From positions 1-60,740 of the IMG/VR virus record IMGVR_UViG_3300044825_002458: a stretch of 60,740 nt of DNA; one strand, 5' to 3'. The notes under the pieces were generated by a model that had not been told where the DNA came from, searched no databases, and worked only from the letters and a program-made list of their open reading frames with translations. The position numbers and the translations under genes were made by a program. Source of the DNA: a virus (lineage: Duplodnaviria; Caudoviricetes). Positions 9,162-36,871 of this stretch are shown piece by piece. Numbering within the stretch: position 1 is the stretch's first letter; the number at the start of each line of letters is the position of its first letter.

Positions 9162-9259
9162 CACTCCTCCTTCGCCGTTTCGATGGGAACTGTGTTGCAG
9201 GACGCTGGACTTGATGTCCTCGCTGGTGTTGGTAATCTTCGGTTCTTCTGAGTTACTGG

Positions 9260-9475: not shown

Positions 9476-9659
9476 ACCTCCAGTACTCAATGACAATCGC
9501 AACGATTACCGCTGCGATCATGAACCCCATAGAAACTAGGTTGACCACATCCACAAAGTTCAACAGCTGATGCTTCCACATCAAGTAGAAGGCTCTACCG
9601 AGGGCCGAAACTGCAATCAGCCCGGCTACTACGGTGGTAATCAAAGTGGTGAGAGTCAC
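9459..9659 (-). CDS. Small two-TM membrane protein
   Basis: Two hydrophobic helices. Confidence 0.55.
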   Translation of the reverse strand: MTLTTLITTVVAGLIAVSALGRAFYLMWKHQLLNFVDVVNLVSMGFMIAAVIVAIVIEYWRSNVGA

Positions 9660-10582
9660 TTTGAACCTCCTGCGGATCGAGCTCCGCCCTTATGACCGAG
9701 CTTCCTCAAAGTCGCCCTGATCTTCCGAGCAGTCGACTCATCGCCTCGCTCCTTGGCGATCTTCAACTGCTTAATCATCGAGTCCAAGTTACCCTTGTCG
9801 ATCGTGAGCGTGAGCTTCTCACCGCGTTCGCCCTTCTTAGCCCTGACCGAGTCGTATACGGCGCCTTCGATGAGCGACGGTACCTTACCCTCGAGCGCCA
9901 CGTGTTGAGCCGTCAAGTCGATGGCGAATGTTACTCGAGGACCTCCGGGCTCATCGCTTGTCATGTCGCAGTGGCGAGGCCCGCCCGCGGTGATGGACGC
10001 TGCTCGATGCTCCATCAACTTCGAGATCAGCATATCAAGAGTGCGGAGATTCTTAACGTGAATGATCGGCGACGATGCCAGCTGAGTCAGCTGGTCTAGG
10101 ATCGTCATCTTCCCATTGAGTTGTTGCCAGATGAACTGATTCGCCGCCGCCGTGATGTCCGCACTGAGCGACGACATGTCTTCACGCGGGTCTCGGTCGA
10201 AGTAGACGATCGACTTGATCGAGTACGACTTGCCAGACCACTTGCAGAAGATGTCGATGCAGTAGCATGGAGCTGCTAGGTGAGAATGCTTTGACCTAGT
10301 CTCGGTCATCCTCCACCACCCGTGGAATTCCACCTGTTGCCCATCCACAGGAATGTAGAACCTGAAGTTGATGTCCTTCATCCCTGCCAAGTCATACCAG
10401 ATGATCTGGTACTGCTTGAACCCGCGACTGAGCGGAGACAGCTCCTTGTGCTTCATCGTGAGTTCTTCGCCATCGTCGAATCGGACGACCGCAGTAGTGT
10501 CCGTACTGCTCAGCACTAGACCCTCATAGGGGTCGCCGTCGAACATGGCGCTTACTCGAATACCCTGCTTGATCTGACTCAT
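9656..10582 (-). CDS. Protein with N-terminal Tudor-like domain and C-terminal RKIRATLRKLGHKGG module
   Basis: RVSAMFDGDPYEG.V......VRFDDGE N-terminus; shared C-terminal motif. Confidence 0.7.
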   Translation of the reverse strand: MSQIKQGIRVSAMFDGDPYEGLVLSSTDTTAVVRFDDGEELTMKHKELSPLSRGFKQYQIIWYDLAGMKDINFRFYIPVDGQQVEFHGWWRMTETRSKHSHLAAPCYCIDIFCKWSGKSYSIKSIVYFDRDPREDMSSLSADITAAANQFIWQQLNGKMTILDQLTQLASSPIIHVKNLRTLDMLISKLMEHRAASITAGGPRHCDMTSDEPGGPRVTFAIDLTAQHVALEGKVPSLIEGAVYDSVRAKKGERGEKLTLTIDKGNLDSMIKQLKIAKERGDESTARKIRATLRKLGHKGGARSAGGSK

Positions 10583-10896
10583 GACCGTTTAGCCTCCGCT
10601 TTCGCGATTTCGTCCTTGATCTGGTTAATCACTCGCTCACAGCGGTGATACGTAAGTGTGACTACCAACATGTCTACACATGATGCCCAAAGCTTAGACA
10701 TGAGCTTCCTTGCTTCGTCGTCTTCAGCTTTGTTGACCATCTCCATCACAGCGTTCCTCAACTCAATGACCAGTGATGCCCCCGTAGGTGACAACCAGAT
10801 ATCGAGTCTATTGTTGAGGTTCATCCGGTGACCCTCTTGAAGTGTCTCGAACGTCACCTTCTTGAGCCTCAAGACCGCTAGATCGGTTGTGCTCAT
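10579..10896 (-). CDS. Hypothetical protein
   Basis: ATGA-coupled ORF. Confidence 0.6.
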   Translation of the reverse strand: MSTTDLAVLRLKKVTFETLQEGHRMNLNNRLDIWLSPTGASLVIELRNAVMEMVNKAEDDEARKLMSKLWASCVDMLVVTLTYHRCERVINQIKDEIAKAEAKRS

Positions 10897-11522
10897 TTTG
10901 CCCCTCCCTTGTGACCGAGCTTCCTTAGCTTGGCCCTGATCTTCCTCTTCTCCGAGGCATCCGTCGACTGTCGAAGTTGGTTAACCAACGTCTCGACATC
11001 CCCACTCATCGGAGCCCTCGAGGTTTCTACTTTCTTGGCGGTTGCCTCGAGGTGATAAGCCTTGGCAATGACCTGTCGATCTTCCTCGCTCAATTGAGTT
11101 CGTTCCAACCTGTCGGTCGTGAGCCGTTCACGATTCAACTCTCTCATTATTGGACCTACCTTGTAGATTAGTTCGGCCATGGTTGTTGAGAAATCCTCGC
11201 GCATCGGAGGATACTTGGTACCACCGCCTGCTTCAGCGACCTTAGTACCTAGTGCGGTTAATTTGAACGCTAGCCTGTTCCCCGCCCACTTCCACTGCAT
11301 GATGAGCTTCTTGGCCTTCAGCGCACCGAGCGCCTTCTCGAACCCTTCCCTCTGTTCTTGCAGTGGGCGATTGATCCAAGGATTCGGTAAGAATCCAAAA
11401 CGGGGCTCACCGAACTCAATCTGGCGGATCCCCTTGTTCCCATAGTAGCCGAGGAACATCATCAAGCTATGCTGAGGTTGTGACAACCCTAGTCGCATCG
11501 CGAGAGAGGTATCAGCGTTCAT
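10893..11522 (-). CDS. Putative winged-helix-like protein with C-terminal RKIRAKLRKLGHKGG module
   Basis: ALGALKAKKLI..FKLTALG resembles a MarR/PadR-type wing; shared C-terminal motif. Confidence 0.6.
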   Translation of the reverse strand: MNADTSLAMRLGLSQPQHSLMMFLGYYGNKGIRQIEFGEPRFGFLPNPWINRPLQEQREGFEKALGALKAKKLIMQWKWAGNRLAFKLTALGTKVAEAGGGTKYPPMREDFSTTMAELIYKVGPIMRELNRERLTTDRLERTQLSEEDRQVIAKAYHLEATAKKVETSRAPMSGDVETLVNQLRQSTDASEKRKIRAKLRKLGHKGGAK

Positions 11523-11586
11523 TCAGATTATCATAGCGTTGGCATTTTGAAAGTCGAAGCCGAAATCGACAATTTCAAAGCCTACG

Positions 11587-11614
11587 AAAAAGCCCCACTT
11601 TCGCGGGGCCTTTT
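11587..11614 (-). terminator. Rho-independent terminator
   Basis: - strand GCCCCGC-GAAA-GTGGGGC-TTTTT downstream of 11649..11870. Confidence 0.8.
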
Positions 11615-11648
11615 CATCTCAGACGGTGCCGGTTTTACCGGCGATCAG

Positions 11649-11870
11649 TCACTTGCCTTCCTTGCGCAGGCCACCGGTGTGTCCGCGCGCACGGAGCTTC
11701 GCGCGCAGGCGACGCTTCTCGTCCGCGTCGGTCGCCTCCTCGAGCGTGGCGAGCAGCTGGTCGACGGTGCGCTCGTCACGGGGACGACCCGGCGAACGTG
11801 CCTCGTCCGACTTCGCGCTCTTCTTGGTCTTCGGGGACTTCTCGGCGGTCTTCTTGCTCTTCTTGGCCAT
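11649..11870 (-). CDS. Small basic histone-like protein with AT-hook-like PGRPR and RRLRAKLRARGHTGG module
   Basis: Lys-rich N-terminus, strongly biased codons, own promoter and terminator. Confidence 0.75.
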   Translation of the reverse strand: MAKKSKKTAEKSPKTKKSAKSDEARSPGRPRDERTVDQLLATLEEATDADEKRRLRAKLRARGHTGGLRKEGK

Positions 11871-11927
11871 TGGTATTTCTCTCGGGGTTTGGGTCAGATG
11901 CTTGGGGAGGAGTTCCCCGTTGCGATG

Positions 11928-11963
11928 AGTTGAAGTATAGACTGAGGTCTCGTTACTTCAACT
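11928..11963 (-). promoter_or_regulatory. Sigma70-like promoter overlapped by a 10-bp inverted repeat
   Basis: - strand TTGAAG-16nt-TATACT; AGTTGAAGTA(11928-37)/TACTTCAACT(11954-63). Confidence 0.6.
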
Positions 11964-11971
11964 ATTAAAAT

Positions 11972-14071
11972 CTAGAACCCCGCAACTTTTTTCAATCGCT
12001 TCGACCATTGGATAGTCTTAGTACCCTCGACGAGTCTATTCGACCTAGCCAGCTTAATCGCCTCGTCAAGGTCAATGCCGACCTCCTTGGGGTCGACCTT
12101 CTGTGACCATCGCTTGATTACCACCTCAGCATCGACAATGATCGGCATGAAGAAGTCAGTATGGTTCTCCATTAGCCTGATGATGGTGGGTACCAGTACT
12201 CTCTGCTCAGACCTAACCATCTCAATGACCAGCTCGTCATGCACCGTCAGGATGACTCTTGACTTGTATCCGCCCTTCCTCAACATGTAGGCAATATCGA
12301 CCAAAGCTCGTTTCATCAAATCCGCTGATGTGCCTTGACAGTCATAGTTCAGGCCCTTGTATGCAAACCTGACAGGTATGTGGTACCGCCTACCGAACGG
12401 ATTTCGAATGTATCCATTACGGGACAGCTCGACCTTCAGATTGTTGGTGGTTCGTCGAACGCTGGGGAACTCATCATGGTATACTGACAACCACGACCTA
12501 GTTTGATCAGCCGTGGTCGGGAATCCATCCCTTGTCATTGTCTCCGCCAGTGTGTCGGCGCCCGATCCATACAACGGACCGAAGTTGACCTTCTTAGCGC
12601 GCTTTCGCTGCTCGTCAGTAACATCCTCCGGCCGACATCGATTGATCTTACTTGCAGTGTGGCGGTGGATATCGTTCAGGATGGCTTTCACCATCTTTGG
12701 GTCTTGGGCGAAGTGTGCGAACAGCCTCATCTCGACTTGTGAATAGTCGAAGTGCCAGTGGACTCGCCCCTTTCGGGGAATGAAGCATTCACGAGGCCCC
12801 AGCAATCTTGGCATGTTCTGAAGATTGGGCTCGGATGACGAGAACCTCCCCGTCTTGGCTTCAGCTTGATTGAACGAGCAGTGGATAATACCAACTTCTC
12901 GACCACTCGGCTCAACCTCAACATCGGTAGCCATTTGAAGCATGTTATCGTAGTATGTGCTAACCATCTTCGATAACTCGCGGAACTTCAATACGAACGG
13001 AGGGAGCAATTCACTCGTACTCAGCTTGTTAACTCTAACCGCCTTCTTGACCTCTCGATAGAACTGAGGGAATAGCCACCCTTTCTCGCCAGATTCACGG
13101 ATAACCGATTGAAGAGGTGGACTGACATACTGGATCATGGCGTACTCGTCGAACGACCATCGACCGCCGCCCCTCACCTGACCAGACTTGTCTTTCTTAG
13201 GCTTAGTTCGATGCTTAAGCTCGATACCAACCTTGTTGAACGCAGCCTCCATTTGAACAGGGCTACCAGGGTTGAACGACTCGATCTCGAGCGGTATTTG
13301 AACTTTGACCTTTTCCCCCTTTACTCGCTTGGTCTTGTTCTTCATTATCGTGAGCTTACCCACGACCTTATTCAACTGGTCTTTCAGCTTAGCCACTCCA
13401 ATAAGTGACCTCTCCCTCAGTTGCTTTACTCGAGTCAAGTCGATAGGGACACCTCGATCTTCCATATCGACACAGTCGAACATCAGCTGTTGCTCAGTTC
13501 GATACAACGCTTCACACGTCTCTCTGATTCTACTTCGGAAAATCTCGTAGAGATAGATTGTAGATTCGACGTCCCACAGGTTACGACGTTGAACGATCTC
13601 GATTGGGGCATCGCTGAAGTTAGGTGCCCTACCATGTTCGAGCATGAAGCGACGCCGATTGGCTTTGAGCCATTCGATGATCTCGTCCTTATCACCCGGG
13701 TCCCTATCCGCGAACCGAATAGCCAACGATCGGAGGTCGTGGTTTGGCAACAGCGAGTTAACAAGCTTGCTTTGAATCAGTGTGCAGTGAGTCCTCGCTC
13801 GAGGAAACTTTACACCCTCAACGCCAAGGAACTTGATCTCGGTCTTCATGTTGTGACCGACGAACTCGTTACTTGTGTTACTTACCTGGCGATTCAGCCA
13901 CTCGATCGAGCTCGGTGTGATTCGAGTAAACCCGTATTCACCCTTGTTGGTGAAGAAGCTGAAACAGAAGGCTCTGTTGCCCTTATAGACGTTAAGGCCG
14001 TTTGTCTCTACGTCAATAGCGACGATACGACCATGAAGATCGGGGAATTCACATGCTTCAGTACCTCGCAT
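11972..14071 (-). CDS. polA: DNA polymerase family A with 3'-5' exonuclease
   Basis: ExoI DVETNG; TGRFSSSEPNLQN; motif A DYSQVEMR; motif B RKRAKKVNFGPLYG; motif C TVHDEL. Confidence 0.95.
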   Translation of the reverse strand: MRGTEACEFPDLHGRIVAIDVETNGLNVYKGNRAFCFSFFTNKGEYGFTRITPSSIEWLNRQVSNTSNEFVGHNMKTEIKFLGVEGVKFPRARTHCTLIQSKLVNSLLPNHDLRSLAIRFADRDPGDKDEIIEWLKANRRRFMLEHGRAPNFSDAPIEIVQRRNLWDVESTIYLYEIFRSRIRETCEALYRTEQQLMFDCVDMEDRGVPIDLTRVKQLRERSLIGVAKLKDQLNKVVGKLTIMKNKTKRVKGEKVKVQIPLEIESFNPGSPVQMEAAFNKVGIELKHRTKPKKDKSGQVRGGGRWSFDEYAMIQYVSPPLQSVIRESGEKGWLFPQFYREVKKAVRVNKLSTSELLPPFVLKFRELSKMVSTYYDNMLQMATDVEVEPSGREVGIIHCSFNQAEAKTGRFSSSEPNLQNMPRLLGPRECFIPRKGRVHWHFDYSQVEMRLFAHFAQDPKMVKAILNDIHRHTASKINRCRPEDVTDEQRKRAKKVNFGPLYGSGADTLAETMTRDGFPTTADQTRSWLSVYHDEFPSVRRTTNNLKVELSRNGYIRNPFGRRYHIPVRFAYKGLNYDCQGTSADLMKRALVDIAYMLRKGGYKSRVILTVHDELVIEMVRSEQRVLVPTIIRLMENHTDFFMPIIVDAEVVIKRWSQKVDPKEVGIDLDEAIKLARSNRLVEGTKTIQWSKRLKKVAGF

Positions 14072-14463
14072 CCGGCGTCCCTCAATAAGTTTCGGCCTTC
14101 GGGGTCTCGGTAGTCATCTAAATAGACTACCCTTCTGATACCTCGTTGAATTATACGCTGCGCGCACATTATGCACGGTGAGTGAGTTGAGATCATGGCC
14201 AAATTAGTCTCAACACTACGAGCCCTAAGAATTGCGTTCTCCTCTGCATGAAGACACATGCATGCTCCTTGAACACCAGTGCACCGATGGCGTGGGAGTC
14301 CCTTGGCCGGCCCGTTGTAGCCGATCGACACAACTTGTGTCAGATCGGCGGTAGTGATTATCGCACCCACCTTGGTTGGGCGATTGCAGGTCGATCGACT
14401 GCTCCACAATAGCGCAGTGACCATGTGGAGCTCAAGTCGAGTCGGACGTTCATCAGAAGACAT
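14008..14463 (-). CDS. dCMP deaminase (ComEB-like)
   Basis: RSTC.R..VGAII, GYNG, HAEENA, SPCIMC zinc motifs. Confidence 0.92.
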   Translation of the reverse strand: MSSDERPTRLELHMVTALLWSSRSTCNRPTKVGAIITTADLTQVVSIGYNGPAKGLPRHRCTGVQGACMCLHAEENAILRARSVETNLAMISTHSPCIMCAQRIIQRGIRRVVYLDDYRDPEGRNLLRDAGCEVLKHVNSPIFMVVSSLLT

Positions 14464-15250
14464 TGCGATCCTTCAAGTCTCGTCGATATGCATGTAGAGA
14501 GCCAGTGAAGTAGGTGAACGTGCCGATCTTCAGATCCAGCTCTGACGCGACGAGGTCTTGGAACATCATTGCCAACAAGATGTCGACCAGGAAGTGAGTC
14601 AACAGGTCGCACGACCTCATCGTGTAGATCAAGTCGACCGCCCCTTCTCGCGACAACAGTTGGTAGTACATCGAGCAAGGGATTCGGCCAACACCCCCCG
14701 CAAGGTTCTGGTCCTGAGACAGTTGAATGTCCAGCCCATCCCCTCCGTTTCGATACACCGGTGCGGATGGCACAGACAGTCCGTTGAAGATCGAGATGAT
14801 GCACTGGCGACTGTCGGCATTGTCCCTCAGTCGTCGCAAGACCGGCTTGAGTTGCGGTACGATACGTTCCGAGTAGGTGTAGTGGAACTTACCCTCTTCG
14901 TCACAGAAGTCATTCCACACCGACTGTCGGTGCTTCGACGAGTTCCCCGGATTGAGCGGGCGATTGCGATAGAAGCGATCATGGAACTCCTCGGTGATGT
15001 AGTTGTAGACCTCATTGACTTGTTCTTCACCGATCAAGTAGGCCACCAGCGAGGTAATCTGAAACTGAGTGACTATATCTCGGCTACCACTGATCTGGAA
15101 CCCATAGGCTCGAAGCTCCTTGGTAGTGAACTCTTCGGGGTCGGTAGCGACCTTGTTCTGCATGCTGGAGGGACGGGTAATGATACCCATCTCCCAGAGG
15201 TCTCGTTCGACTTCGCGGACCGCTTCCTTGATGTTCTGATAGATTCGCAT
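14453..15250 (-). CDS. Thymidylate synthase-family enzyme, probable dCMP (hydroxy)methylase
   Basis: YTYSER, SRQ, RIPCSMYYQ, MRSCDLLTHFLVD, GSLHAY; Asp at the ThyA N177 position. Confidence 0.85.
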   Translation of the reverse strand: MRIYQNIKEAVREVERDLWEMGIITRPSSMQNKVATDPEEFTTKELRAYGFQISGSRDIVTQFQITSLVAYLIGEEQVNEVYNYITEEFHDRFYRNRPLNPGNSSKHRQSVWNDFCDEEGKFHYTYSERIVPQLKPVLRRLRDNADSRQCIISIFNGLSVPSAPVYRNGGDGLDIQLSQDQNLAGGVGRIPCSMYYQLLSREGAVDLIYTMRSCDLLTHFLVDILLAMMFQDLVASELDLKIGTFTYFTGSLHAYRRDLKDRNVF

Positions 15251-16898: not shown

Positions 16899-16901
16899 GG
16901 T

Positions 16902-17357: not shown

Positions 17358-17358
17358 G

Positions 17359-20208: not shown

Positions 20209-20242
20209 GCTTTCACGTTGACTCCGACCAGTTCAAAGTAAA

Positions 20243-20424
20243 GCACCGCTGCCCCCGACGTAATGGCTCATGGGATTCGATATACCCCCAGGTCAAGGGG
20301 GTCGAGTATGGACGTGGGCGCGGCTACCAGAGCGTTTTGGTCTTACCACATCCACACGACGAGATTGCTCGTCAGGCCATGAGCGCTCGACCGGTCAGAA
20401 TCGTTACGTCGAGAGCAGCGGTAC
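20243..20424 (-). ncRNA. Putative structured RNA (multibranch) between the SSB and primase-helicase genes
   Basis: 21-bp outer stem, 8-bp second stem, 12-bp inner stem and further hairpins; mismatches on + become G-U pairs on -. Confidence 0.65.
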
Positions 20425-20465
20425 AAGTATCAAAGAGCGATTGTCCCAGTCGGTGGCTAGAAGGG

Positions 20466-21542
<1,077 letters not shown>

Positions 21543-21545
21543 TTG

Positions 21546-22316: not shown

Positions 22317-22395
22317 AGGGAAGCTCCTGTGTCAGTCAGAACGCGATCGACAATAACGAATGGCAGTTACAATTGCACGTTCTGAGAAAGAATGG

Positions 22396-26892: not shown

Positions 26893-27146
26893 TACTGACG
26901 AGCGCTCCGGAAGTTGATGATCCGGACAATCTTCCCGATGGTAGCCGTTGAGTATCCCATGATCGACGCGATCCTCGCCTGAGTGAAATGGGGTACGAGG
27001 GCCTCAACTAGCCTGACGGTCGACTCGGGAACCGGCCGGCGAAAACTTGCAGACATCTCGAAGTCGCCGGGCTTGTAGCAGTACTTACGCTTCCGCTTCG
27101 GCCGGTTGCTGTTGATGTAGAACGACGCTTCACGGGTTTTCTTCAA
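26892..27146 (-). CDS. Small HTH protein
   Basis: FTQARIASIMGYSTATIGKIV helix-turn-helix. Confidence 0.7.
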   Translation of the reverse strand: MKKTREASFYINSNRPKRKRKYCYKPGDFEMSASFRRPVPESTVRLVEALVPHFTQARIASIMGYSTATIGKIVRIINFRSARQ

Positions 27147-27355
27147 CTTGGCATCTCCATTGATTGTTGATTATCGGGAGGTGATGGTTTTTCGAACTCC
27201 GGTCTAATGCCGGTTAGTTCTTGCAGCAGATCAGAGAACACCTTTGTGTTGGTGTTCACCCCTTCGATTAGTTCATCGAGAGATTGCTGTAGTTTATCGA
27301 TTCTGCGATTGAAGTCAGCCGCATATTTCAGAAGTTCATGTTGGTGGTAACTCAT
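27143..27355 (-). CDS. Hypothetical coiled-coil protein
   Basis: Coupled ORF. Confidence 0.55.
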   Translation of the reverse strand: MSYHQHELLKYAADFNRRIDKLQQSLDELIEGVNTNTKVFSDLLQELTGIRPEFEKPSPPDNQQSMEMPS

Positions 27356-27963
27356 GTGAGTAGGTTATCAGCGGATTTGGCTTTTTCAATGAGAGCGTCA
27401 CGGTCAGAGGCTTTTACTGACCTCATCAACGAGGTAACTAGTTGTTCGACTGGGCCAATCTCACCGATGATAGACCCGTAGAAGTTGATTGTGGGGATCT
27501 CATCCCATTGGGCCGCCACTGTTCCCCATGGGTGACCTGGTGATTTTATTGCCGGGTGGTCGGTCAAGGCGTTCAGGTCATACACAGTTCGCCATACGCC
27601 ATCTCTATGGAACGTGAGGTAGAACATGGCCGAGTCCCTTCGTAGGCCGTATTCAACCACACAATAGTTCGCTTGCGGCAACTTCCCATACTTGGCAAAA
27701 TGCGCAGTGATCACGGCTTGTAGGCCGCAGGGCGCAAATAGGTAACGATGCCATCGCTTGTATGCCAACAGCCTACATGCAAGGCCCATGTGTTCGACTA
27801 TCTTACCTCGAGTCGCTGATGATACGTTGAACTCTTCACCGGCTCGGTAGTAGAGCTCGGATGTTCCTGGCGTATGGTTGCGAATCACCCACTCATCTGG
27901 GGATCGCATGGCTTCTATCAGCGCATCGACTCGAGGATAGTACGTCATTTGGCGAGTCCCCAT
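27352..27963 (-). CDS. Hypothetical protein (first gene of the leftward operon)
   Basis: 203-aa ORF next to the divergent intergenic region. Confidence 0.6.
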   Translation of the reverse strand: MGTRQMTYYPRVDALIEAMRSPDEWVIRNHTPGTSELYYRAGEEFNVSSATRGKIVEHMGLACRLLAYKRWHRYLFAPCGLQAVITAHFAKYGKLPQANYCVVEYGLRRDSAMFYLTFHRDGVWRTVYDLNALTDHPAIKSPGHPWGTVAAQWDEIPTINFYGSIIGEIGPVEQLVTSLMRSVKASDRDALIEKAKSADNLLT

Positions 27964-28022
27964 GTTATCACATTTTTTCGCCCTGTTCAGTTCGCTGTTC
28001 GAAAATGCGAGCGTTTTTCGCG

Positions 28023-28209
28023 TATCATCGTGCGCGCGCGGGAGTCCCCCTCACGAATACACACGAACGAACACGCCCCACAAACCCCCATACTATACCC
28101 CTATAATACTATACTATACCATAATATATCTATCTATCTATCTATCTACTACAAACAAACAAACAAACAAACAAACTAGAGCGCTTCTCAGCGCGCGCGC
28201 ACGATGATA
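28023..28209. repeat. 18-bp inverted repeat enclosing (TATC)5, (ACAA)6 and a 103-nt G-free tract; candidate origin/control region
   Basis: TATCATCGTGCGCGCGCG 28023-40 / CGCGCGCGCACGATGATA 28192-209; no G on + from 28076 to 28178. Confidence 0.75.
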
Positions 28210-28305
28210 TGAAAAATACGCTTGACTAATTGGCATTTGAGGGCGGCATTAGGATTTTGCTAAAATAGCGGCGTATTTCGAAGGGGAGTCAGATATACTA
28301 CGGCA

Positions 28306-28818
28306 ATGGCGAAATACCTTGTCTGTGTCGACCCGTCGATCAAAGCTCTCGGATTTGCGGTATTCAAGAAGACCGATGCCTTCTGGGCGACCTGGAAGCT
28401 TGTGACATCGACCGGCATAAAACTGAAGAACAAGGATAGAGGTAATCCGTTGTCGTGGGTCGATCGGGTCGATGAAATGACTTCGATGGTAATGGACTTG
28501 TTGCTTGATGCAACAAGCGGCATCGAAAATGCGGCAGATGCTATGTTGCTAATTGAACTCCCTGACTATCGAACAGATGCGGCATCGAATACAGGCTCAA
28601 TCGAGAAATTGGTGGCATTTGTGTTCACGCTCAGGGCTATGGCTTCAAGCTTCTGTAAGGTAACATTGGTGCCTGTTAGGAAGTGGAAGGGCAATACACC
28701 TAAGTCGATCACTCAGGCAAGGGTCGCTAAGCATTGGAACTGGTCGGGCCGTGACCATAATGAGGCCGATGCGGTAGGTATCGGTGACTGGGCAATTCGC
28801 AAGGCTAAGTTGGTCTAG
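28306..28818 (+). CDS. RuvC-like Holliday junction resolvase
   Basis: VDPSIKALGFA, LIE.P, WKG..PK, HNEADAVGIG. Confidence 0.85.
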   Translation: MAKYLVCVDPSIKALGFAVFKKTDAFWATWKLVTSTGIKLKNKDRGNPLSWVDRVDEMTSMVMDLLLDATSGIENAADAMLLIELPDYRTDAASNTGSIEKLVAFVFTLRAMASSFCKVTLVPVRKWKGNTPKSITQARVAKHWNWSGRDHNEADAVGIGDWAIRKAKLV

Positions 28819-28995
28819 CCGTCTCATTCCACTAAATCCGTTTTGTTCGGGATTGACAACTCGGTAAAGTTCGACCTAGAGTGAATCGATCACTAATGGC
28901 ATGTTGCCGTTGGTGTTCTTTGGAAGCATGAGCGGAGTGCCGCCCCACGCTATGACTGGTTGGAGTAGCGTGGGGCCTTTATTCCGATACCGCAT

Positions 28996-29535
28996 ATGAA
29001 GTCGAAGTCCGAACCCTCAAGTCCGGAGATCCCCGAGTACAAACTGAATAGGGGTGAAAAGGTGTCGGGTAGCTTGAAGGATCGAATCGCCCAATGGGAA
29101 AGGATCTGGCCCTCTCCCGAACAGGCTTGGAAGACTCGTTTCCTGAAGATCTTCGCCAAGACCAAGAACATGGGTCGCGCCATCGTTTCGTGCGGCACTA
29201 ATCGCGCAGCGATCAACCGGGAACGAAAGTTCGACTCGGCTTTCGATTCGGAACTCACCGACCTTTGGGAAAGCTTCGTCGATGACCTCGAGGCATCGGC
29301 CATGGATCGGGCCACACACGGTACTTTCAGGTTCCACTATGACCGCGACGGTAACATGACTTCCGTCGAACGAAAGTACGAGACTCAGCTCACTATCTTC
29401 ATGTTGCAGGCCAACCGGTCCAAGTACAACATCAAGGTGGACGACGGTACAACGCTCGAGGACGTGGTCAATAAGTTCCATGCCATCACTCAGCGTCTGA
29501 AGAACAGTGTCCCTGAACTGCCTTCGAAGAACTGA
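28996..29535 (+). CDS. Terminase small subunit-like protein
   Basis: W..RFL..F....NM......D.AF......W....DDLE.....RA..G......KYETQL.IFMLQA.R.KY pattern. Confidence 0.7.
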   Translation: MKSKSEPSSPEIPEYKLNRGEKVSGSLKDRIAQWERIWPSPEQAWKTRFLKIFAKTKNMGRAIVSCGTNRAAINRERKFDSAFDSELTDLWESFVDDLEASAMDRATHGTFRFHYDRDGNMTSVERKYETQLTIFMLQANRSKYNIKVDDGTTLEDVVNKFHAITQRLKNSVPELPSKN

Positions 29536-29589
29536 GATTCTTTTGCCGGGGGCTGATTCTTCATAAGTGTCACCATATACTGGTGCACT

Positions 29590-30033
29590 ATGTCGACTCA
29601 AGAACCAGCCACCCGCGTCTGTCGCGAGTGTCGTCAAGAGCTGGCTATCGAGAACTTTTCCATAGTCAATTCGTCGCGTGCAAAGACGTATCGACGGAAT
29701 ACTTGCATAGAGTGCCGAAAGAAGTACGTTCGGCAAATCCGCAAGACGAACCGTTCGAAGTACACTAAGCGGCAAAAGTCTCGTCGTCAGTTCCGTAACC
29801 GGCTTTACCGAGACATGGTAAGGCTCTTGTTCGAGCTCAATCAGAAGGGGGTACTACCTCCCCACGGCATTGCGCTCCTTCACGATCTCAAGGCAAAGGT
29901 CACCTCAAGTGGAAATACCGAAGTCACCCTCCCAGCTCCTCAACCTGCTGAAGCAAATCCCGTCGTGTCGGAAATGCCCCGGCCTGAGCAACCCGGTATC
30001 GCCGTGGCTCCCCTCGACCAGCCCGCTGGCTGA
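29590..30033 (+). CDS. Zn-finger protein (CxxC..CxxC) with basic helix
   Basis: RVCRECRQE...F...CIECRK, like the N-terminus of HNH/EndoVII proteins but no nuclease domain. Confidence 0.6.
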   Translation: MSTQEPATRVCRECRQELAIENFSIVNSSRAKTYRRNTCIECRKKYVRQIRKTNRSKYTKRQKSRRQFRNRLYRDMVRLLFELNQKGVLPPHGIALLHDLKAKVTSSGNTEVTLPAPQPAEANPVVSEMPRPEQPGIAVAPLDQPAG

Positions 30034-30544
30034 GCTCATTCCCCAGCCCCCTTTTGGGAAGTTGGTCTTGATACTCCCAAGCCCTTCGCCAAAGGACCCC
30101 GAGTCAAGGCTTACCATATCGTCTACTCCTAGTGCCGTGGCGATCAGGAACGCCCTGCGATTTGCGGTGGACGGGATCGATCCGATGATGGCATACATGA
30201 CTTATTTGACCAAATGCCCGTCGAACATCCCCGACGATGGCACTGTTCAATGTGTCAGTACTTGCATGTCGGAGTACCTGCTGCACGAACTCAAAGCCCT
30301 CGACCCGGATACCATCATCGTATTCGGCGCCAAGGTTTTTGGTGCAGTGGCAAAGAGGGCGAACCCTCATATCTCATTTGTCAATGGCCGAATCATCATC
30401 TGCCCTGGTCCTCAGAAAGAAGTGACTATCTGTTCGATGTTCCACCCGAGGTACTACTCCTACGCTCATCGTAGCATCGCTGAGTTTGAAGTAGTGTTCA
30501 GTTCGCTTGCGCAACGACTCAGTGAAAGGAAGAAGTCAAAATGA
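29870..30544 (+). CDS. Family-4 uracil-DNA glycosylase-like protein (degenerate active site)
   Basis: CRKC, KC, C..YL..EL....P..IIVFG, FHP retained; GEAPG motif reads LPSPS; start uncertain. Confidence 0.7.
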   Translation: MRSFTISRQRSPQVEIPKSPSQLLNLLKQIPSCRKCPGLSNPVSPWLPSTSPLAELIPQPPFGKLVLILPSPSPKDPESRLTISSTPSAVAIRNALRFAVDGIDPMMAYMTYLTKCPSNIPDDGTVQCVSTCMSEYLLHELKALDPDTIIVFGAKVFGAVAKRANPHISFVNGRIIICPGPQKEVTICSMFHPRYYSYAHRSIAEFEVVFSSLAQRLSERKKSK

Positions 30545-30634
30545 GCACCGAAGAAGATGAATCAAGGGCCTGGTTGTTTGTGACCTGTCCGATCTGTCAT
30601 CAAGAAGTCCGTCGATCCAATTGGGAGCGACACT

Positions 30635-31027
30635 ATGACGACCACCAAATCGAGACCGATCAACATTCGAATTAGCCTCCACGACTCTCAGTTCTTCCCG
30701 ATGATGACCCCCTCCAAGCACATCGTAGTGGCTAGGGGGCTGAGGGAAAAGGTAGATGGTTGTTACTGGCAGTTCCATACCTCTATACGAGACCCGGAAT
30801 TGGCATTGGTGTTCCAAGACCTGTCGTTCAACCTGTTCTTCGGGGAGACCGCAGTAACAGCTCGCACTCGCAGAAGATTCGCTCGAGCGGACATCGACAC
30901 AATGACCCGAATCTTCCAGGACAGCATGCAAGGCAATGACCCCAACTACTTCAGGTATGGAATATTGGTCATCCCCCTCAACTGCCCTGATCTTAACTTC
31001 AAAGTCTTCATGGAACCTAACTCGTGA
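30635..31027 (+). CDS. Hypothetical protein
   Basis: ORF in the + strand block. Confidence 0.5.
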   Translation: MTTTKSRPINIRISLHDSQFFPMMTPSKHIVVARGLREKVDGCYWQFHTSIRDPELALVFQDLSFNLFFGETAVTARTRRRFARADIDTMTRIFQDSMQGNDPNYFRYGILVIPLNCPDLNFKVFMEPNS

Positions 31028-31236
31028 CAAACGAAGATCCTAAACCTCCCCGTCTCTCTATGGATGCAGCGGTCGTTGCTAAGCTCTTCGCGGCATTGAA
31101 CGCAGCGAAGACCTCACCCGCATCGTTCACGATCGAGGCCACTAACCCCGATGGAGTTCAGGCATTCAGGGTGTTGGTCATGAGCGAAGGACTGTATCGG
31201 CAAATTGCCGCGGTCTTCAGCGCTCCGCCCAAGTAA
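31024..31236 (+). CDS. Hypothetical protein
   Basis: GTGA-coupled ORF. Confidence 0.5.
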   Translation: MTNEDPKPPRLSMDAAVVAKLFAALNAAKTSPASFTIEATNPDGVQAFRVLVMSEGLYRQIAAVFSAPPK

Positions 31237-31365
31237 AAAGCCAGTCCTCTTTTCGCTAAGAGGAGTTGTTACTTGCAAGAGGTTGTAGCGGTAAAAAGCC
31301 GCTCCCTCGCTCCCCGCCGATCACCCCGGCGTTTAGCGAGCAAACAAGGAACTGCCTCAGCAGAA

Positions 31366-31409
31366 GTTACGACTTCGTAACAGACATTTTGGCGTTACGA
31401 ACTCGTAAC
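31366..31409. promoter_or_regulatory. Pair of GTTACG-N4-CGTAAC palindromes
   Basis: 31366-81 and 31394-409. Confidence 0.75.
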
Positions 31410-31582
31410 AGTCGACGGCGTTTAAAACGTCCCCCTGGTCACGATCGTCTGCACTACGTATCACTACACACATAGAATTTTGGCAGCTACAATCGACCGA
31501 TAGACGCCGGAGGTCATATCGGTGGCAATGCGTCGAACGCGTCGAACACTAAGTTCCGCAGTGGCTACGAAAAAGCCCGCAG

Positions 31583-31789
31583 TCATCGGCGAGTATAACC
31601 GCATCGACGAAGACGGGCGATCACCTCGCGGACCTTGGCAATGTTCGCAGAGGGGTAGACGACTTCCCACGGGTAGTCGGGATTGAGGCTGTATGCAACC
31701 ACAACCCACTCCCGATCGAACATCTTGGACCGGCGGATACGGTAGTGGTTGTATTTGCGGACAACGTCGATGTCGATTACGGGCATCAT
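31583..31789 (-). CDS. Hypothetical protein
   Basis: Coupled ORF. Confidence 0.5.
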   Translation of the reverse strand: MMPVIDIDVVRKYNHYRIRRSKMFDREWVVVAYSLNPDYPWEVVYPSANIAKVREVIARLRRCGYTRR

Positions 31790-32124
31790 TCTAGTTCACT
31801 CGCGGCGGTAAGTAAAACGGTTACGATATGCGATTGCTCCACGGTAGGCAACTGATTCCATTCGCCTATGTTCTTCACGCCTTCTACCTTCAGATCGACG
31901 TTACGCCTCACTGCGTCCATTGCCACAATCGTAATGGTCAGGTTGGGGGAGCATCGTTGAATCGATCCGGGCAGATTCCACCTCACTGCCGATTCGCTAT
32001 GGACCACTACAGGCTTATTGTAGGCATCGACTGCGAGATGTTCGCGCACCCATTTTGAGGCATGACCCATTATCTCCGCCGCTCGCCTCAATGTTGCAGC
32101 GGCGATCGATCGAATGGTAGCCAT
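31786..32124 (-). CDS. DUF6197-like phage protein
   Basis: L..AA......W.....A.D.....V...S..A.RW...G.I....WN......V...L..AA pattern. Confidence 0.55.
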   Translation of the reverse strand: MATIRSIAAATLRRAAEIMGHASKWVREHLAVDAYNKPVVVHSESAVRWNLPGSIQRCSPNLTITIVAMDAVRRNVDLKVEGVKNIGEWNQLPTVEQSHIVTVLLTAASELE

Positions 32125-32196
32125 CAGATTGGCCAGAACAATGCGATGGCCAAGAAGAAGAGGATGAACAAGATGGACAGCATCTCGTTCACTCGT

Positions 32197-32436
32197 TCAC
32201 GTTGTCGGGTGTTCATTGCCGGTCTCCGTGCGGTATGCGAGTAGGTGGAGGTTGAAGATCGTTCGGGGTTCCTTGTCCTTTTTCTTCTCGTCCGGGGGAA
32301 CGACCGAATAGGAAGTCAGGATCCCGGTGAGGAACGAAGTCGAATGAACGCCTACTACCTTGTAGGCATTACCCGCCTTCAGTCCTTGAGATGTCACGGT
32401 TGCGACGATTGTATCGCCTTTGTCGAACGCGGTCAT
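32197..32436 (-). CDS. Hypothetical SH3-like protein
   Basis: MTAFDKGDTIVA...GL..G..YKVV. Confidence 0.5.
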   Translation of the reverse strand: MTAFDKGDTIVATVTSQGLKAGNAYKVVGVHSTSFLTGILTSYSVVPPDEKKKDKEPRTIFNLHLLAYRTETGNEHPTT

Positions 32437-32699
32437 TTGTTGTTTGCCCCCCACAGGCCTGACTTTACCATGTCCTCGATGTTGCTGAGGTAATCGTCGA
32501 CCTCTGCGAGGATGTCCGTTAGGTCATCTTCGTAATACCTGTGGTAGGTATTGAGCTCGGCCATTTGCCACAAGGCATTATCGCCCAGCTCCTTCAGTGC
32601 CAACTTGATACGTTCGTTCGACGCGATTGCCGCATTGATCCTCACCCGGAACGTCCGATATGAAGTCAACAGGTTGCGGAGTTTCTGCTGCTGGCTCAT
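32433..32699 (-). CDS. Hypothetical helical protein
   Basis: MSQQQKL start after AGGAGG. Confidence 0.55.
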   Translation of the reverse strand: MSQQQKLRNLLTSYRTFRVRINAAIASNERIKLALKELGDNALWQMAELNTYHRYYEDDLTDILAEVDDYLSNIEDMVKSGLWGANNK

Positions 32700-32911
32700 T
32701 TGATCCTCCTGACGGTAAGAAGAAATCGCCTGTCGCTGATGTCCATAGTGAGGGTGTAGTCGCTGCTTGCCCACCACGCCATGGCCTGTAGCAACAGGTC
32801 ACGGCGATCATCGCGGACAGAACGGCTACCCAAGTCATTCATCAAGGCGTCTAGCGCTTCGTCGATGAGTTGAGTAACCGCTCGAGGGCCCGCTATTTGT
32901 GGTTCTTGCAT
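32696..32911 (-). CDS. Hypothetical protein
   Basis: Coupled ORF. Confidence 0.5.
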   Translation of the reverse strand: MQEPQIAGPRAVTQLIDEALDALMNDLGSRSVRDDRRDLLLQAMAWWASSDYTLTMDISDRRFLLTVRRIK

Positions 32912-32991
32912 CGTTCGTTTACCTTACGCTGTATCGTAACACTATGATCGTAATGGGGGCATATGCCAACATCAACGCCCCCGGTGTTATT

Positions 32992-33477
32992 TTACGCAGT
33001 GGAACGATTCGGCAGAATCAATTCCTCGGCAAAGGAGTAGAACGAAGTAGCGCCAATGACCATGTGATCCAGGAGTGGCACTCCTAGTAATTCGCCCGCC
33101 GCTCGCAAGCGATCGGTAATCAGGCGATCCTCCTTGGATGGTGATGGGTCACCCGATGGGTGATTGTGTGCCACGATGACACCGGCGGCGCAGCAGTGAA
33201 TGGCGGGACAGAACACCTCTCGAGGGTGAACCGTAACCGCTTCTGCCGTGCCAATGGACACGTTGTGGACCGCGATGACGTTGTTCCGTGTGTCCAGGTA
33301 GAAGGCAATGAAGTGTTCTCTCGGTTCTCGACCGATCATTGCGAACGCGATCGACTGCAGATCGTCGGCCCGTTTGACTCGCTGCACGGCGTAGCCTGTA
33401 TTGGGCTCGAGGGCCAGGGTCACACGAGGTGGGCTGCAATTCGGCCTGTGGACTTGGTCACGTTTCTTTGGAGGCAT
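32992..33477 (-). CDS. radC: RadC-like JAB domain protein
   Basis: REHF....LDTRN, VHPREVF, HNHPSGDPSPSKED, LLDHMVIG. Confidence 0.92.
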   Translation of the reverse strand: MPPKKRDQVHRPNCSPPRVTLALEPNTGYAVQRVKRADDLQSIAFAMIGREPREHFIAFYLDTRNNVIAVHNVSIGTAEAVTVHPREVFCPAIHCCAAGVIVAHNHPSGDPSPSKEDRLITDRLRAAGELLGVPLLDHMVIGATSFYSFAEELILPNRSTA

Positions 33478-33487
33478 GATTCTCTTT

Positions 33488-33733
33488 TCAGGGTTGATGG
33501 TTGTTACTTCGTGATGCAGAGGATTTGTCAGATCGCGGCTGCCGATGCACAAAGGTGAGGCATGAGTAGTGGACCGCATACTCTTTGCCGTCTTTGTCCA
33601 TCCGCACCATCAGATATCCGTGTTTGGTCTTGCGGGCATTTGTGACAATGCCTTGGCCTTTGGGCTCACCCCAGTACCTTGCCTTTACTTCCACGATGTC
33701 GTGGAATTCGAACTTAGGTATGGGGGGTTTCAT
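33488..33733 (-). CDS. Hypothetical SH3-like protein
   Basis: Small beta-rich ORF in the chain. Confidence 0.5.
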   Translation of the reverse strand: MKPPIPKFEFHDIVEVKARYWGEPKGQGIVTNARKTKHGYLMVRMDKDGKEYAVHYSCLTFVHRQPRSDKSSASRSNNHQP

Positions 33734-33917
33734 CGCCGTTGGCCAGGTACGGGTTAGGCGAAGGTGGCTTCAGGGCAAATACCGTCCAGTACCCGTCTTC
33801 GATCGCCCCATCGGAATCTTCGACGAAGTAGACCGCGTCCGAGTAAGTATCGAAAGGGCCTATGAAATTGTAGCCGTCAATTAGGCTACCCACTGCGAGT
33901 AGGAACTTGTCACCCAT
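33714..33917 (-). CDS. Hypothetical protein
   Basis: G..F.GPFDT...A motif; AAGTAACAAC leader. Confidence 0.55.
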   Translation of the reverse strand: MGDKFLLAVGSLIDGYNFIGPFDTYSDAVYFVEDSDGAIEDGYWTVFALKPPSPNPYLANGDETPHT

Positions 33918-33950
33918 GGTTTTCTTGTTGCTCCTGTTGGTTGTTACTTG

Positions 33951-34163
33951 TTAGAGCTTTCTTTCCCAATCGGGGAAATAGGCCTTCATCATGGCATCGG
34001 CCATTACTACGGCCATCCGGAGTGGATATCCGTCCGATCGAATGATCCTTGCTAGCCGTGCCCAATGCTGCCCCGGTGTAAGGTCAAGCGCTGGGTCGGT
34101 CAGTTGGTCAAGGAATCGATCGCCCCATTCAGCAAGCAGAGAATAGAGGTATTCGTCATTCAT
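33951..34163 (-). CDS. Hypothetical protein
   Basis: GGGGG SD-like sequence upstream. Confidence 0.5.
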   Translation of the reverse strand: MNDEYLYSLLAEWGDRFLDQLTDPALDLTPGQHWARLARIIRSDGYPLRMAVVMADAMMKAYFPDWERKL

Positions 34164-34171
34164 GATCCCCC

Positions 34172-34426
34172 CTAGTAGTCGTATGCCGGGAGGTGGTTGT
34201 GTGCCCAGCGTCGTGATGTCGCAGCGACGACCCGCGCCTTGAAATCCGCGAAGTCTCGATACCCCATCTGTTGAATGAGCTCGTCTGCCCTTTTGCTGAT
34301 CGACCTAAACAACTGACCGGCACATTCCGAACTTCCGAACGTGTCCAAATCTTCGTATTGCTTGTGGACGTCGATCCAGAACGCATTCCAGCGCACTACG
34401 TGACTGCCTAGTGACTTCTTGTTCAT
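34172..34426 (-). CDS. Hypothetical protein
   Basis: AAGGA SD and AGTAACAAC leader. Confidence 0.55.
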   Translation of the reverse strand: MNKKSLGSHVVRWNAFWIDVHKQYEDLDTFGSSECAGQLFRSISKRADELIQQMGYRDFADFKARVVAATSRRWAHNHLPAYDY

Positions 34427-34454
34427 TGTCGTTCCTTTGTTTGCTTGAGGGTTG

Positions 34455-34706
34455 TTACTCGAGGTCTCCTTCGAACCTGTACTGATGGCATTTCACGCAG
34501 CGAGGGCCTACGTCTTCGAACATCCGCCATTTGTGGTCACAGATACCAGCCCAGGAACTAGACCCTGAGAGTGTGTTATACAGGTCGAGCCGGGCCTGGC
34601 AGAAGAGTGTATACAACGCCGGGCTGAGGGGATGGCATGCGGCTTTCATGAAGCTTCGCCATTCGTCGAACGATTGCGCATCGCTCAGTTTTCTTTGCTC
34701 GTCCAT
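34455..34706 (-). CDS. Hypothetical protein with C-terminal Zn ribbon
   Basis: CDHKW......CVKC. Confidence 0.55.
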   Translation of the reverse strand: MDEQRKLSDAQSFDEWRSFMKAACHPLSPALYTLFCQARLDLYNTLSGSSSWAGICDHKWRMFEDVGPRCVKCHQYRFEGDLE

Positions 34707-34808
34707 AGGTTGTTACTTGCGTAGGATTGTTTCGTGGGAATGCCTGTCCGTGTGCGGTTTCATTATGCAGTGGTGATCGGCTGCAAACAAGGCGAGGGCA
34801 CCGGGGAA

Positions 34809-34856
34809 GTTACGACTTCGTAACAGACTTTTTGGCATGTGTTACGATGGCGTAAC
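34809..34856. promoter_or_regulatory. Pair of GTTACG-N4-CGTAAC palindromes
   Basis: 34809-24 and 34841-56; 34806-36 is nearly identical to 31363-93. Confidence 0.75.
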
Positions 34857-34878
34857 ATACGTTGGTACGGATGCCGTG

Positions 34879-35118
34879 TCAGTCGGAGAGTGCCGCATGG
34901 AACAAGGTAATGCGTGCATCGGCGGGCAATGATTGCCTCACTGCCGTCAATACGTCGAACATATCGCGGCAATTATGTACCCTGCCCGACCGTTCGCATT
35001 CTACGACATCGAGACCATCGACGGAGTAATTGACGGAGTAATCGAATGTGTTGACCGTGTGTTCTGGGCCGATGAAAAGGTCGACGCGTTTGCCTCGATT
35101 TACTTTGAGAAGTTCCAT
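34879..35118 (-). CDS. Hypothetical protein
   Basis: AAGTAACAAC leader. Confidence 0.5.
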   Translation of the reverse strand: MELLKVNRGKRVDLFIGPEHTVNTFDYSVNYSVDGLDVVECERSGRVHNCRDMFDVLTAVRQSLPADARITLFHAALSD

Positions 35119-35250
35119 TGCCTGGTTCTCTTTTTGCTTGAAGGAGTTGTTACTTGTGAACGTATGCCCATCGTTTTTCTGCCGTCCCCCGTCGCGTATG
35201 TGTTGAGGGGGTTTGAAATAGCAGATTTAGCGGATGGATAAAAAATGTCC

Positions 35251-35320
35251 GTTACGAGATCGTAACGCCATTCTGTCATGCGTTACGGGGTCGTAACACG
35301 GGCCGTTACGAGGTCGTAAC
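35251..35320. promoter_or_regulatory. Three GTTACG-N4-CGTAAC palindromes
   Basis: 35251-66, 35282-97, 35305-20. Confidence 0.75.
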
Positions 35321-35344
35321 GCCATTTTGGCATAATGCGTCGCG

Positions 35345-35377
35345 AAAAATGCCCCCGTGATTTTCGCACGGGGGCAT
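35345..35377 (-). terminator. Rho-independent terminator
   Basis: - strand ATGCCCCCGTG-loop-CACGGGGGCAT-TTTT directly after 35383..35697. Confidence 0.8.
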
Positions 35378-35382
35378 ATCGT

Positions 35383-35697
35383 TCACGCGATCGCGTCGAC
35401 CTTCTTCGCCTTCTTGGCCTTCTTCTTGCTGACCTTCGCGACGACCTTCTCGTCCTTCGCGTCCTTCGCGTCCTTCGCGTCCTTCGCCCCGTCGATCGCC
35501 CTCAACCCGCCGACGTGTCCCAACCGACGCAACTTCGCGCGAATGTTCTTCTGCGCACCGCGATCGCCCTTCGCGTCGCGCAACTCGACAATCGCCTGCG
35601 CGATCGCCTCGTTCCGCTGCTCCGCCGTCATCTCGACCTTCTGCTCGACCGTTTCCTTGTCGTTCTTCGTGCTCATTGCATCTACCTTTGCGCGCAT
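35383..35697 (-). CDS. Small basic protein with KNIRAKLRRLGHVGG module and DAK repeats
   Basis: Shared motif, Lys-rich tail, own terminator. Confidence 0.75.
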   Translation of the reverse strand: MRAKVDAMSTKNDKETVEQKVEMTAEQRNEAIAQAIVELRDAKGDRGAQKNIRAKLRRLGHVGGLRAIDGAKDAKDAKDAKDEKVVAKVSKKKAKKAKKVDAIA

Positions 35698-35769
35698 CCC
35701 TGCGCGACTTTTGTTTGTCCCGAATTATTGCGCACGACGTGTGCGCCCTTGTTCGAAACGAATTCTGTG

Positions 35770-36863: not shown

Positions 36864-36871
36864 CGTCCCAG

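Follow-up and report, generated by a model that had tools for sequence, protein, structure and literature searches.

Small helical modules borne by unrelated proteins of one locus are known from conflict systems as effector-associated domains (EADs), and the helix-hairpin-helix (HhH) and SAP families are small helical binders of the DNA backbone with glycine-rich turns. The AT-hook lies in the minor groove of DNA, and the Smoothelin motif of eukaryotic proteins is accompanied by a calponin-homology (CH) domain. In Staphylococcus phage 80alpha the basic C-terminal residues 272-331 of the head protein gp44, a MuF-family ejection protein, bind DNA without sequence preference and gp44 protects the injected DNA ends (PMC7290940); MuF proteins fused to effector domains are likewise presented as head components that are delivered into the host (PMC5512222). 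Here we describe a module of about 38 amino acids (aa) shared by four open reading frames (ORFs) of IMG/VR virus record IMGVR_UViG_3300044825_002458, a tailed phage of 60,740 bases with an estimated completeness of 97%; the window below means this whole stretch. The module matches no described family in PHROG, NCBIfam, the PDB or the literature searched, its one contact with Pfam being a borderline match to Smoothelin. It is best explained as a hitherto undescribed alpha-hairpin domain, autonomous and some 38 residues long, and we tentatively suggest that it may tether its carriers to DNA.

Results

A conserved module in four proteins of one phage

The four ORFs (308, 209, 73 and 104 aa, Table 1) are all present on the minus strand at the positions where a sequence-only reading of the window had placed a shared motif. 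In each module an amphipathic helix leads through an S/T-D turn to a basic helix and then to G-H-x-G-G; the amphipathic helix precedes the motif in every ORF and GH.GG is invariant (4/4), both as that reading had described. The motif in the protein ends that it quoted is real too, but two of the four quoted ends stop 4-8 residues short of the true C-terminus. The 308-, 209- and 73-aa proteins end in ...ESTARKIRATLRKLGHKGGARSAGGSK, ...ASEKRKIRAKLRKLGHKGGAK and ...ADEKRRLRAKLRARGHTGGLRKEGK, respectively, and the 104-aa protein carries RGAQKNIRAKLRRLGHVGGLR internally. A six-frame search with [IL]RA[KT]LR.[LR]GH.GG gave four matches in the record, all in these ORFs, and a profile search gave four as well (E 7e-21 to 2.8e-16), with none further at E<=0.01. 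The module-coding DNA of the four copies is 41-68% identical, with few synonymous codons in common. As the DNA has diverged while the peptide has been kept, these are old copies under protein-level selection and not the outcome of a recent duplication or an assembly artefact.

A module profile of 41 positions, built from a 14-sequence alignment and searched against 1.84 billion protein cluster representatives, matched 420 of them at E<=1e-3 and 27 at E<=1e-10, with the best E-values down to 2e-20. This search and an earlier one supplied the 156 module proteins studied in detail. Every one of them has the specific core R..LR..GH.G (156/156), so that the matches are not generic Lys/Arg-rich tails, the finding that had been set beforehand as fatal to the idea of a shared module. 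In an alignment of 144 of these proteins, drawn from 50%-identity clusters, seven positions are invariant (L163, R176, L179, R180, G183, H184 and G186 in the numbering of module protein P0001; 144/144), while G187 is kept in 142/144 and D168 in 127/144. The consensus is s-[VI]-x-x-L-L-x-x-L-x-x-[ST]-x-D-x-x-E-K-R-K-[IL]-R-A-x-L-R-x-L-G-H-x-G-G-[LA]. In the AlphaFold2 (AF2) model of the module, helices at residues 3-15 and 19-31 are followed by a non-helical GHxGG tail (mean predicted local distance difference test score, pLDDT, 84.3). Charge is distributed unevenly: in helix 2 and the tail, 19 residues in all, the net charge is +6.2 on average and varies from +3 to +9, whereas helix 1 with the turn has a mean of -1.1.

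Ubiquitin-like processing at the GG was considered and is ruled out, as at least two residues always follow it and many modules are internal. Two modules of the related record G006 (41669-42838 and 45429-46241) are degenerate, with the His replaced (…RGIRGG…) and the GHxGG cap lost (…RAQGYRIS…); the cap is thus not kept in every lineage.

Likeness to known families

Smoothelin (PF12510) is the only Pfam family touched by the module. Against a gathering cut-off of 23 bits, the 209-aa protein reaches 20.4 as a whole and 24.3 when its module is taken alone (E 3.1e-5; profile positions 19-46 of 50); 3/14 isolated modules match at E<=0.1, as do 7/75 whole carriers at E<=1e-3. The sequence-only reading had named a match to a characterised Pfam domain with an unrelated role as refuting its idea; Smoothelin is the one borderline case, and the role of that motif is itself not known to be characterised. 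The module and the Smoothelin motif have L-x-x-L-L...D-x-x-E-R/K-R-x-I-R-x-x-[IL]-R-x-L in common; the G-H-x-G-G cap is not known to be part of the latter. Unlike eukaryotic Smoothelin proteins, the carriers come from phage records and metagenomes, and no CH domain is present among the 19 Pfam families matched by the 75 carriers of at least 140 aa. A literature search on the function of the Smoothelin motif returned no paper; homology of the two is possible.

The remaining resemblances are looser. EAD9 (PF19962) is matched by 1/14 modules (E 0.039; 14.2 bits, below the cut-off of 25). No HhH or SAP family came up in any Pfam scan (window proteins, carriers, isolated modules) and, differently from these families, the Gly-rich element of the module comes after helix 2 in the AF2 model, not between two helices. 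Like AT-hook or HMGA-like proteins, small carriers such as the 73-aa protein, P0010, P0012 and P0017 combine a GRP core between basic residues with a Lys-rich tract and sometimes an acidic tail; however, the AT-hook adjoins the module and is not the module itself, and 144/156 carriers are without one. In gp44 of phage 80alpha, where we confirmed Phage_Mu_F at residues 188-300, the DNA-binding tail resembles the module in position and charge only: in both cases a basic segment directly follows the MuF domain of a head protein, but the gp44 tail, read by eye and unaligned, does not have the helix-turn-helix-GHxGG pattern. Searches of the PDB gave a best E of 2.4 with Foldseek and of 0.19 with the sequence profile (designed helical proteins), the four window proteins have no PHROGs or NCBIfam match, and no paper was found in the literature with the module motif strings.

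The DNA pattern for R-A-K-L-R-x-x-G-H-x-G-G matched 43 times in genomes representing 185,579 species, against a rough chance expectation of about 35, and 0/43 matches are full modules; the same pattern in metagenome contigs yielded full modules in 15/72 matches. As this pattern covers about a third of module variants by a rough estimate, absence from cellular genomes is not proven by it. A tblastn search of the module against 50,697 GenBank phage records gave a single chance match (E 10). Twenty module proteins that were looked up have metagenome sources only, none with an NCBI or UniRef source, and are singletons except for one two-member cluster.

One module, many carriers

That a single portable module sits in unrelated proteins was the central claim of the sequence-only reading and is strongly supported, by hundreds of metagenomic proteins and by every related record examined. 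With the module masked, the 156 carriers fall into 11 unrelated multi-member clusters and 96 singletons, the largest clusters being the family of the 308-aa window protein (19), a 230-280 aa family (10), MuF proteins of 539-1307 aa (9) and SprT-like proteins (7). Just over half (81/156) are shorter than 140 aa, and many of these small carriers hold the module in mid-protein; in the 75 carriers of at least 140 aa it is C-terminal in 59 and internal in 16. Pfam partners in these 75 are Phage_Mu_F (9), SprT-like (7), ADPrib_exo_Tox (4), ATLF-like (2), and Tudor_2, 53-BP1_Tudor, HTH_20, MarR_2, HTH_24 and RPA_C (1 each); wHTH families are confined to a single carrier.

Phage_Mu_F and the module thus share one polypeptide in 9/75 carriers, and they do so also in the relatives G005, G006 and G008, though not in the MuF protein of the window. 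In the MuF proteins the module directly follows the MuF domain; four of them have two matched module stretches and P0025 has three. For the MuF protein P0003 no relative was found among viral contigs. The only clearly cellular-looking carrier is P0109 (608 aa, on a 108-kb metagenome contig), a Ser/Thr kinase with the module between its Pkinase and FGE-sulfatase domains, and probably a cellular protein. Its module is of the same subtype (DR-x-x-QK-x-IR) as that of the 104-aa window protein, which may hint at the host lineage; P0014, P0015, P0097 and P0079 have this subtype as well. Module variants follow the carrier family and not the genome, the 308-aa family keeping ...RKIRAxLRKMGHxGGAR in all relatives.

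The module cassette in related phages

Relatives were found in IMG/VR with peptide and DNA patterns, and the module profile was then run over the whole records (n=10 including the window). Nine of the ten hold 2-5 copies and one, a 45%-complete fragment (G007), holds a single match. There are five matches in G005 (complete, with terminal repeats), four in the window (G000, 97% complete) and in G006 (complete; two copies degenerate), three in G008 (96% complete), in G001 (84% complete) and in the fragments G002 and G003, and two in G004 (84% complete) and the fragment G009. Two or more modules are also found in 5/8 module-bearing metagenome loci of at least 3.4 kb. The module is a genuine domain under strong constraint, portable between proteins, and phages of this clade normally have more than one copy of it.

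The polymerases of L005, L008, G005, G006 and G008 are 45-52% identical to that of the window, by which measure these records are true relatives, and much of the replication region is common to the window and its relatives. In all six, module genes come directly after the polymerase gene, and the last gene of the cassette is a member of the 308-aa family in all except L008, whose record stops after the second module gene. The metagenome fragments L116 and L123 have the same order, a small carrier followed by a 308-aa family member. What lies between the polymerase and the 308-aa family gene varies: the 73-aa AT-hook and 209-aa proteins in the window, and in relatives proteins of 132-165 aa with Tudor and AT-hook-like elements, proteins of 254-271 aa whose Lys-rich repeat tails resemble those of histone H1, and one of 283 aa. 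In L007 / L132 (835-1929 and 840-1070), two overlapping ORFs on the same strand but in different frames, a 364-aa member of the 308-aa family and a 76-aa ORF, each have a module; these are overlapping genes, unless the true start of the long one lies downstream of the called start.

Module-bearing MuF ORFs were found in G005 (29292-32516, 1075 aa), G006 (18449-20743, 765 aa) and G008 (26066-28348, 761 aa). One or two modules directly follow the MuF domain and precede effector-like regions, which are ADP-ribosyltransferase-like in G005 and G008 and metallopeptidase-like in G006. The G006 protein is 29% identical to the MuF protein of the window (45528-46511), and module-effector fusions to MuF have been gained or lost within the clade.

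The four carriers of the window

The genes of three carriers sit together as a cassette directly after the DNA polymerase gene, and that of the fourth is located among small genes of the early region. The sequence-only reading had labelled them Tudor-like (308 aa), winged helix-turn-helix (wHTH)-like (209 aa), AT-hook (73 aa) and DAK-repeat (104 aa); the first label holds at the level of the fold and the last two at that of the sequence, whereas the wHTH label could not be confirmed.

The 308-aa protein belongs to the largest carrier family, with 19 homologues among the 156 module proteins after removal of the module. Its AF2 model (mean pLDDT 78.5) has strands at residues 9-50 with pLDDT 81-94, which in the model form an SH3-like five-stranded barrel superposable on solved Tudor domains (PHF1 Tudor, 8h43_B: template modelling score by target 0.79, root mean square deviation 1.1 over 51 columns, probability 1.00, Foldseek E 9e-3). 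Aromatic residues are plausibly placed in the sequence for a putative aromatic cage around a methylated ligand. Structure searches with Foldseek and in the Atlas gave no usable match for the central part, and tblastn of the whole protein against the 50,697 GenBank phage records gave none. The N-terminal part of the 209-aa protein has only two relatives among the 156 module proteins; it has no Pfam, PHROG, NCBIfam or PDB sequence match and no usable match in the Atlas.

In the 73-aa protein the AT-hook is represented by SPGRPRDER, a G-R-P core with basic flanks, five residues before helix 1 and hence in the flank rather than in the module. Its gene and that of the 104-aa protein have strongly biased codons and terminator-like sites of their own, as the sequence-only reading had noticed: a GC-rich hairpin and T-run follow both, the G+C content at third codon positions (GC3) is 0.86 and 0.89, respectively, and Lys is encoded only by AAG (13/13 and 20/20), Arg in the 73-aa gene only by CGT or CGC. 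Both GC3 values exceed those of the other 35 of the 37 ORFs tabulated (0.46-0.80). The two hairpins were read by eye; an automatic terminator scan reported the one at 11586..11610 on the plus strand only and did not report the one at 35345..35377. The codon bias and the terminator-like hairpins of the two small carriers fit abundant architectural proteins. With a promoter-like site upstream (11961-11934), the 73-aa gene looks like a transcription unit of its own. The gene for a DUF669 protein (20466-21542, 358 aa) has a very strong codon bias too (GC3 0.80; Lys = AAG in 31/31), and its product is probably another abundant protein of the replication region.

Table 1. Module carriers, terminator-like hairpins and neighbouring or comparable genes in the window
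Feature	Position	Strand	Description
308-aa carrier	9656..10582	minus	Tudor-like barrel N-terminal, central domain, C-terminal module (profile match 9671-9790)
105-aa ORF	10579..10896	minus	Between two module genes; without module
209-aa carrier	10893..11522	minus	189 aa with a later ATG (as in P0001); module at extreme C-terminus (about 10896-11006)
Terminator-like hairpin	11586..11610	minus	GGCCCCGCGAAAGTGGGGC + TTTTT, downstream of 73-aa gene; read by eye
73-aa basic protein	11649..11870	minus	Lys-rich N-terminus, AT-hook-like SPGRPRD, module (11658-11774)
Family-A DNA polymerase	11972-14071	minus	Directly upstream of module cassette
Terminator-like hairpin	35345..35377	minus	ATGCCCCCGTG-CGAAAA-TCACGGGGGCAT + TTTTT, downstream of 104-aa gene; read by eye
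104-aa protein	35383..35697	minus	Internal module (35494-35613), then DAKDAKDAKDAKDEK repeat, Lys-rich tail
MuF-like head protein, 327 aa	45528..46511	plus	Phage_Mu_F E 7.1e-9; without module

Genome context and repeated DNA motifs

Other recognisable genes of the record encode a primase / MCM-like helicase, an SNF2 helicase, a PD-(D/E)XK nuclease and the DUF669 protein, and the head and tail genes include those for the portal, a short MuF head protein, tail tube, tape measure and GTA-like tail proteins. No tRNA genes were found in the record. A blastn search with 9000-15000 found no match among GenBank phages, and the polymerase is at most 31% identical to that of any deposited phage among the matches listed. 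Adjoining the polymerase gene, 14453-15250 encodes a thymidylate-synthase-like protein (E 4.8e-13, partial match), kept in G005, G006 and G008 at 43-46% identity. The protein may be a standard thymidylate synthase; alternatively, it may act as a pyrimidine hydroxymethylase, which would imply modified DNA.

Two DNA motifs recur in the window. Against an expectation of 0.06, there are seven exact copies of GTTACG-N4-CGTAAC and an eighth with a single mismatch. All are located at 31366-36350, grouped in twos or threes in the gaps that separate small minus-strand genes, and three of them (35251-35320) closely follow the terminator-like site of the gene for the 104-aa carrier. The copies look like operator sites of a dimeric regulator. 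AAGTAACAAC, a candidate phage promoter element, occurs in six exact copies and three with one mismatch (1.9 expected), all on the minus strand at 18643-37163 and mostly in the gaps between small early-region genes. In front of the 73-aa gene, the promoter-like site and a related sequence, TTGAAGTAAC, overlap. The sequence-only reading had speculated that the module binds one of these motifs or a structured RNA at 20243-20424. The two DNA motifs do exist, but no observation relates them to the module, and an Rfam search of the window gave no RNA family; we consider this link unsupported.

Discussion

A proposed tether on DNA

We tentatively propose a portable, sequence-unspecific nucleic-acid tether, a reading to which we give somewhat less than an even chance of being right and whose most likely ligand would be the backbone of double-stranded DNA. 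Helix 1 (h-x-x-L-L-x-x-L) is the amphipathic one, the S/T-D turn caps helix 2, and the strongly basic helix 2 (E-K-R-K-I-R-A-x-L-R-x-L) leads into the invariant G-H-x-G-G-[L/A]. Such a tether would hold on DNA a heterogeneous set of proteins, namely the small abundant basic proteins, a number of them bearing AT-hooks or Lys-rich repeat tails, the conserved ~300-aa Tudor protein, SprT-like peptidases and head-packaged MuF polyvalent effectors.

A nucleic-acid-binding role, as envisaged by the sequence-only reading, is plausible from the charge of the module, the adjoining AT-hooks and the position next to MuF domains. Small carriers are net positive in 78/81 cases, and 51/156 carriers have an extra stretch of at least 40% K/R outside the module. 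AT-hook-like [RKPG]GRP cores are present in 12/156 carriers, compared with 3.1 +/- 1.7 (maximum 8) in 300 shuffles, and 8/14 such sites are located only 3-5 residues after the GG; as AT-hooks occupy the minor groove, a module next to one would have to lie on or beside DNA. The SprT-like, wHTH, RPA_C and Tudor domains among the partners are characteristic of proteins that associate with DNA. By position, the placement of the module directly after the MuF domain, where gp44 has its DNA-binding basic C-terminus, argues for the same ligand.

Several points weigh against a DNA tether. That the ligand is DNA is something we infer, and no known DNA-binding fold or family was matched (Foldseek PDB E 2.4; PDB sequence E 0.19; no HhH, SAP or HTH in Pfam scans of the window proteins and isolated modules). 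Co-occurrence with DNA binders can fit another role, such as a protein contact, equally well. The invariant R, A, R, H and GG exceed what unspecific electrostatic binding usually needs and may reflect a specific partner or a precise cap structure; a hairpin of 38 residues might be unable to fold by itself; and the kinase P0109 with its FGE-sulfatase domain has no obvious need of a DNA tether.

Other readings of the module

The module could instead be a homotypic or heterotypic adaptor, comparable with the EADs of conflict systems, with copies that bind each other directly or bridged by DNA and so gather the tagged proteins, the MuF effector protein of relatives included, into one complex. We consider this unlikely. 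In its favour, unrelated proteins encoded side by side share the module, which is kept across relatives while the carriers change, and in G005, G006 and G008 it is found both in the head MuF protein and in polymerase-adjacent proteins; the invariant face outside the core (R, A, R, H) also suggests a specific contact. However, direct self-association is disfavoured by the charge of the modules (about +5 net on average), the module variants go with the carrier family and not with the genome, and the resemblance to EAD9 is insignificant.

Less probable again is a signal that targets cargo to the capsid or portal, by which tagged proteins would be packed in the head and injected with the DNA in the manner of T4 internal proteins or encapsulin cargo. 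In favour of this, the module is C-terminal in 59/75 of the larger carriers, several unrelated proteins per genome carry it, ADP-ribosyltransferase and metallopeptidase partners are typical of injected effectors, and the MuF polyvalent proteins belong to a class described as host-delivered head components (PMC5512222). Yet the non-MuF carriers of the window and its relatives adjoin the polymerase gene in the replication region, away from the head genes, and the MuF proteins have a head-targeting domain of their own and still contain 1-3 internal modules. Nor does a mid-protein location in many small carriers, or a likely cellular kinase among the carriers, agree well with packaging.

A bolder version of the DNA tether is, in our estimation, a long shot: the module as the handle of a phage-built 'chromatin', in which Tudor, AT-hook and Lys-rich-tailed proteins and the MuF effector of relatives would assemble on the genome, some of them perhaps packed and injected as a shield against host nucleases or defence, and at the same time as a true homologue of the eukaryotic Smoothelin motif. 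Improbable to a slightly higher degree is a handle for host takeover whose ligand would be a conserved macromolecule of the host but not DNA, for instance RNA, RNA polymerase or some other hub protein. RNA binders typically have helices that are rich in arginine and carry small residues where they make contact; the module in one probable cellular protein (P0109) means that the ligand need not be phage-encoded. No particular partner is indicated, though, Rfam gives no family in the window, and the AT-hooks that adjoin the module favour DNA. Finally, a compositional accident of Lys/Arg-rich tails with no domain behind it, to which the basic character of the region and some low-complexity flanks might point, is already refuted by seven columns invariant in 144/144 proteins, profile E-values down to 2e-20, the divergence of the window-copy DNA under a conserved peptide, and two control scans that separate chance pattern matches from full modules (0/43 and 15/72).

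Significance

Small portable domains are a route by which phages rewire their proteins. The module described here is sharply conserved, yet no true copy was met in cultured material, either in the pattern scan over 185,579 species or among 50,697 GenBank phages, and it is a hallmark of a clade of uncultured phages with genomes of about 50-60 kb. In these genomes it marks out the variable cassette that adjoins the polymerase gene and connects this cassette with effector proteins packaged in the head. Should it prove to be a true homologue of the Smoothelin motif, it would give this uncharacterised motif a counterpart in viruses or prokaryotes and a function that can be tested. As a minimal DNA tether, it could possibly be used as a 38-residue fusion tag; as an adaptor or packaging signal, it would reveal by what means these phages select what accompanies their DNA.

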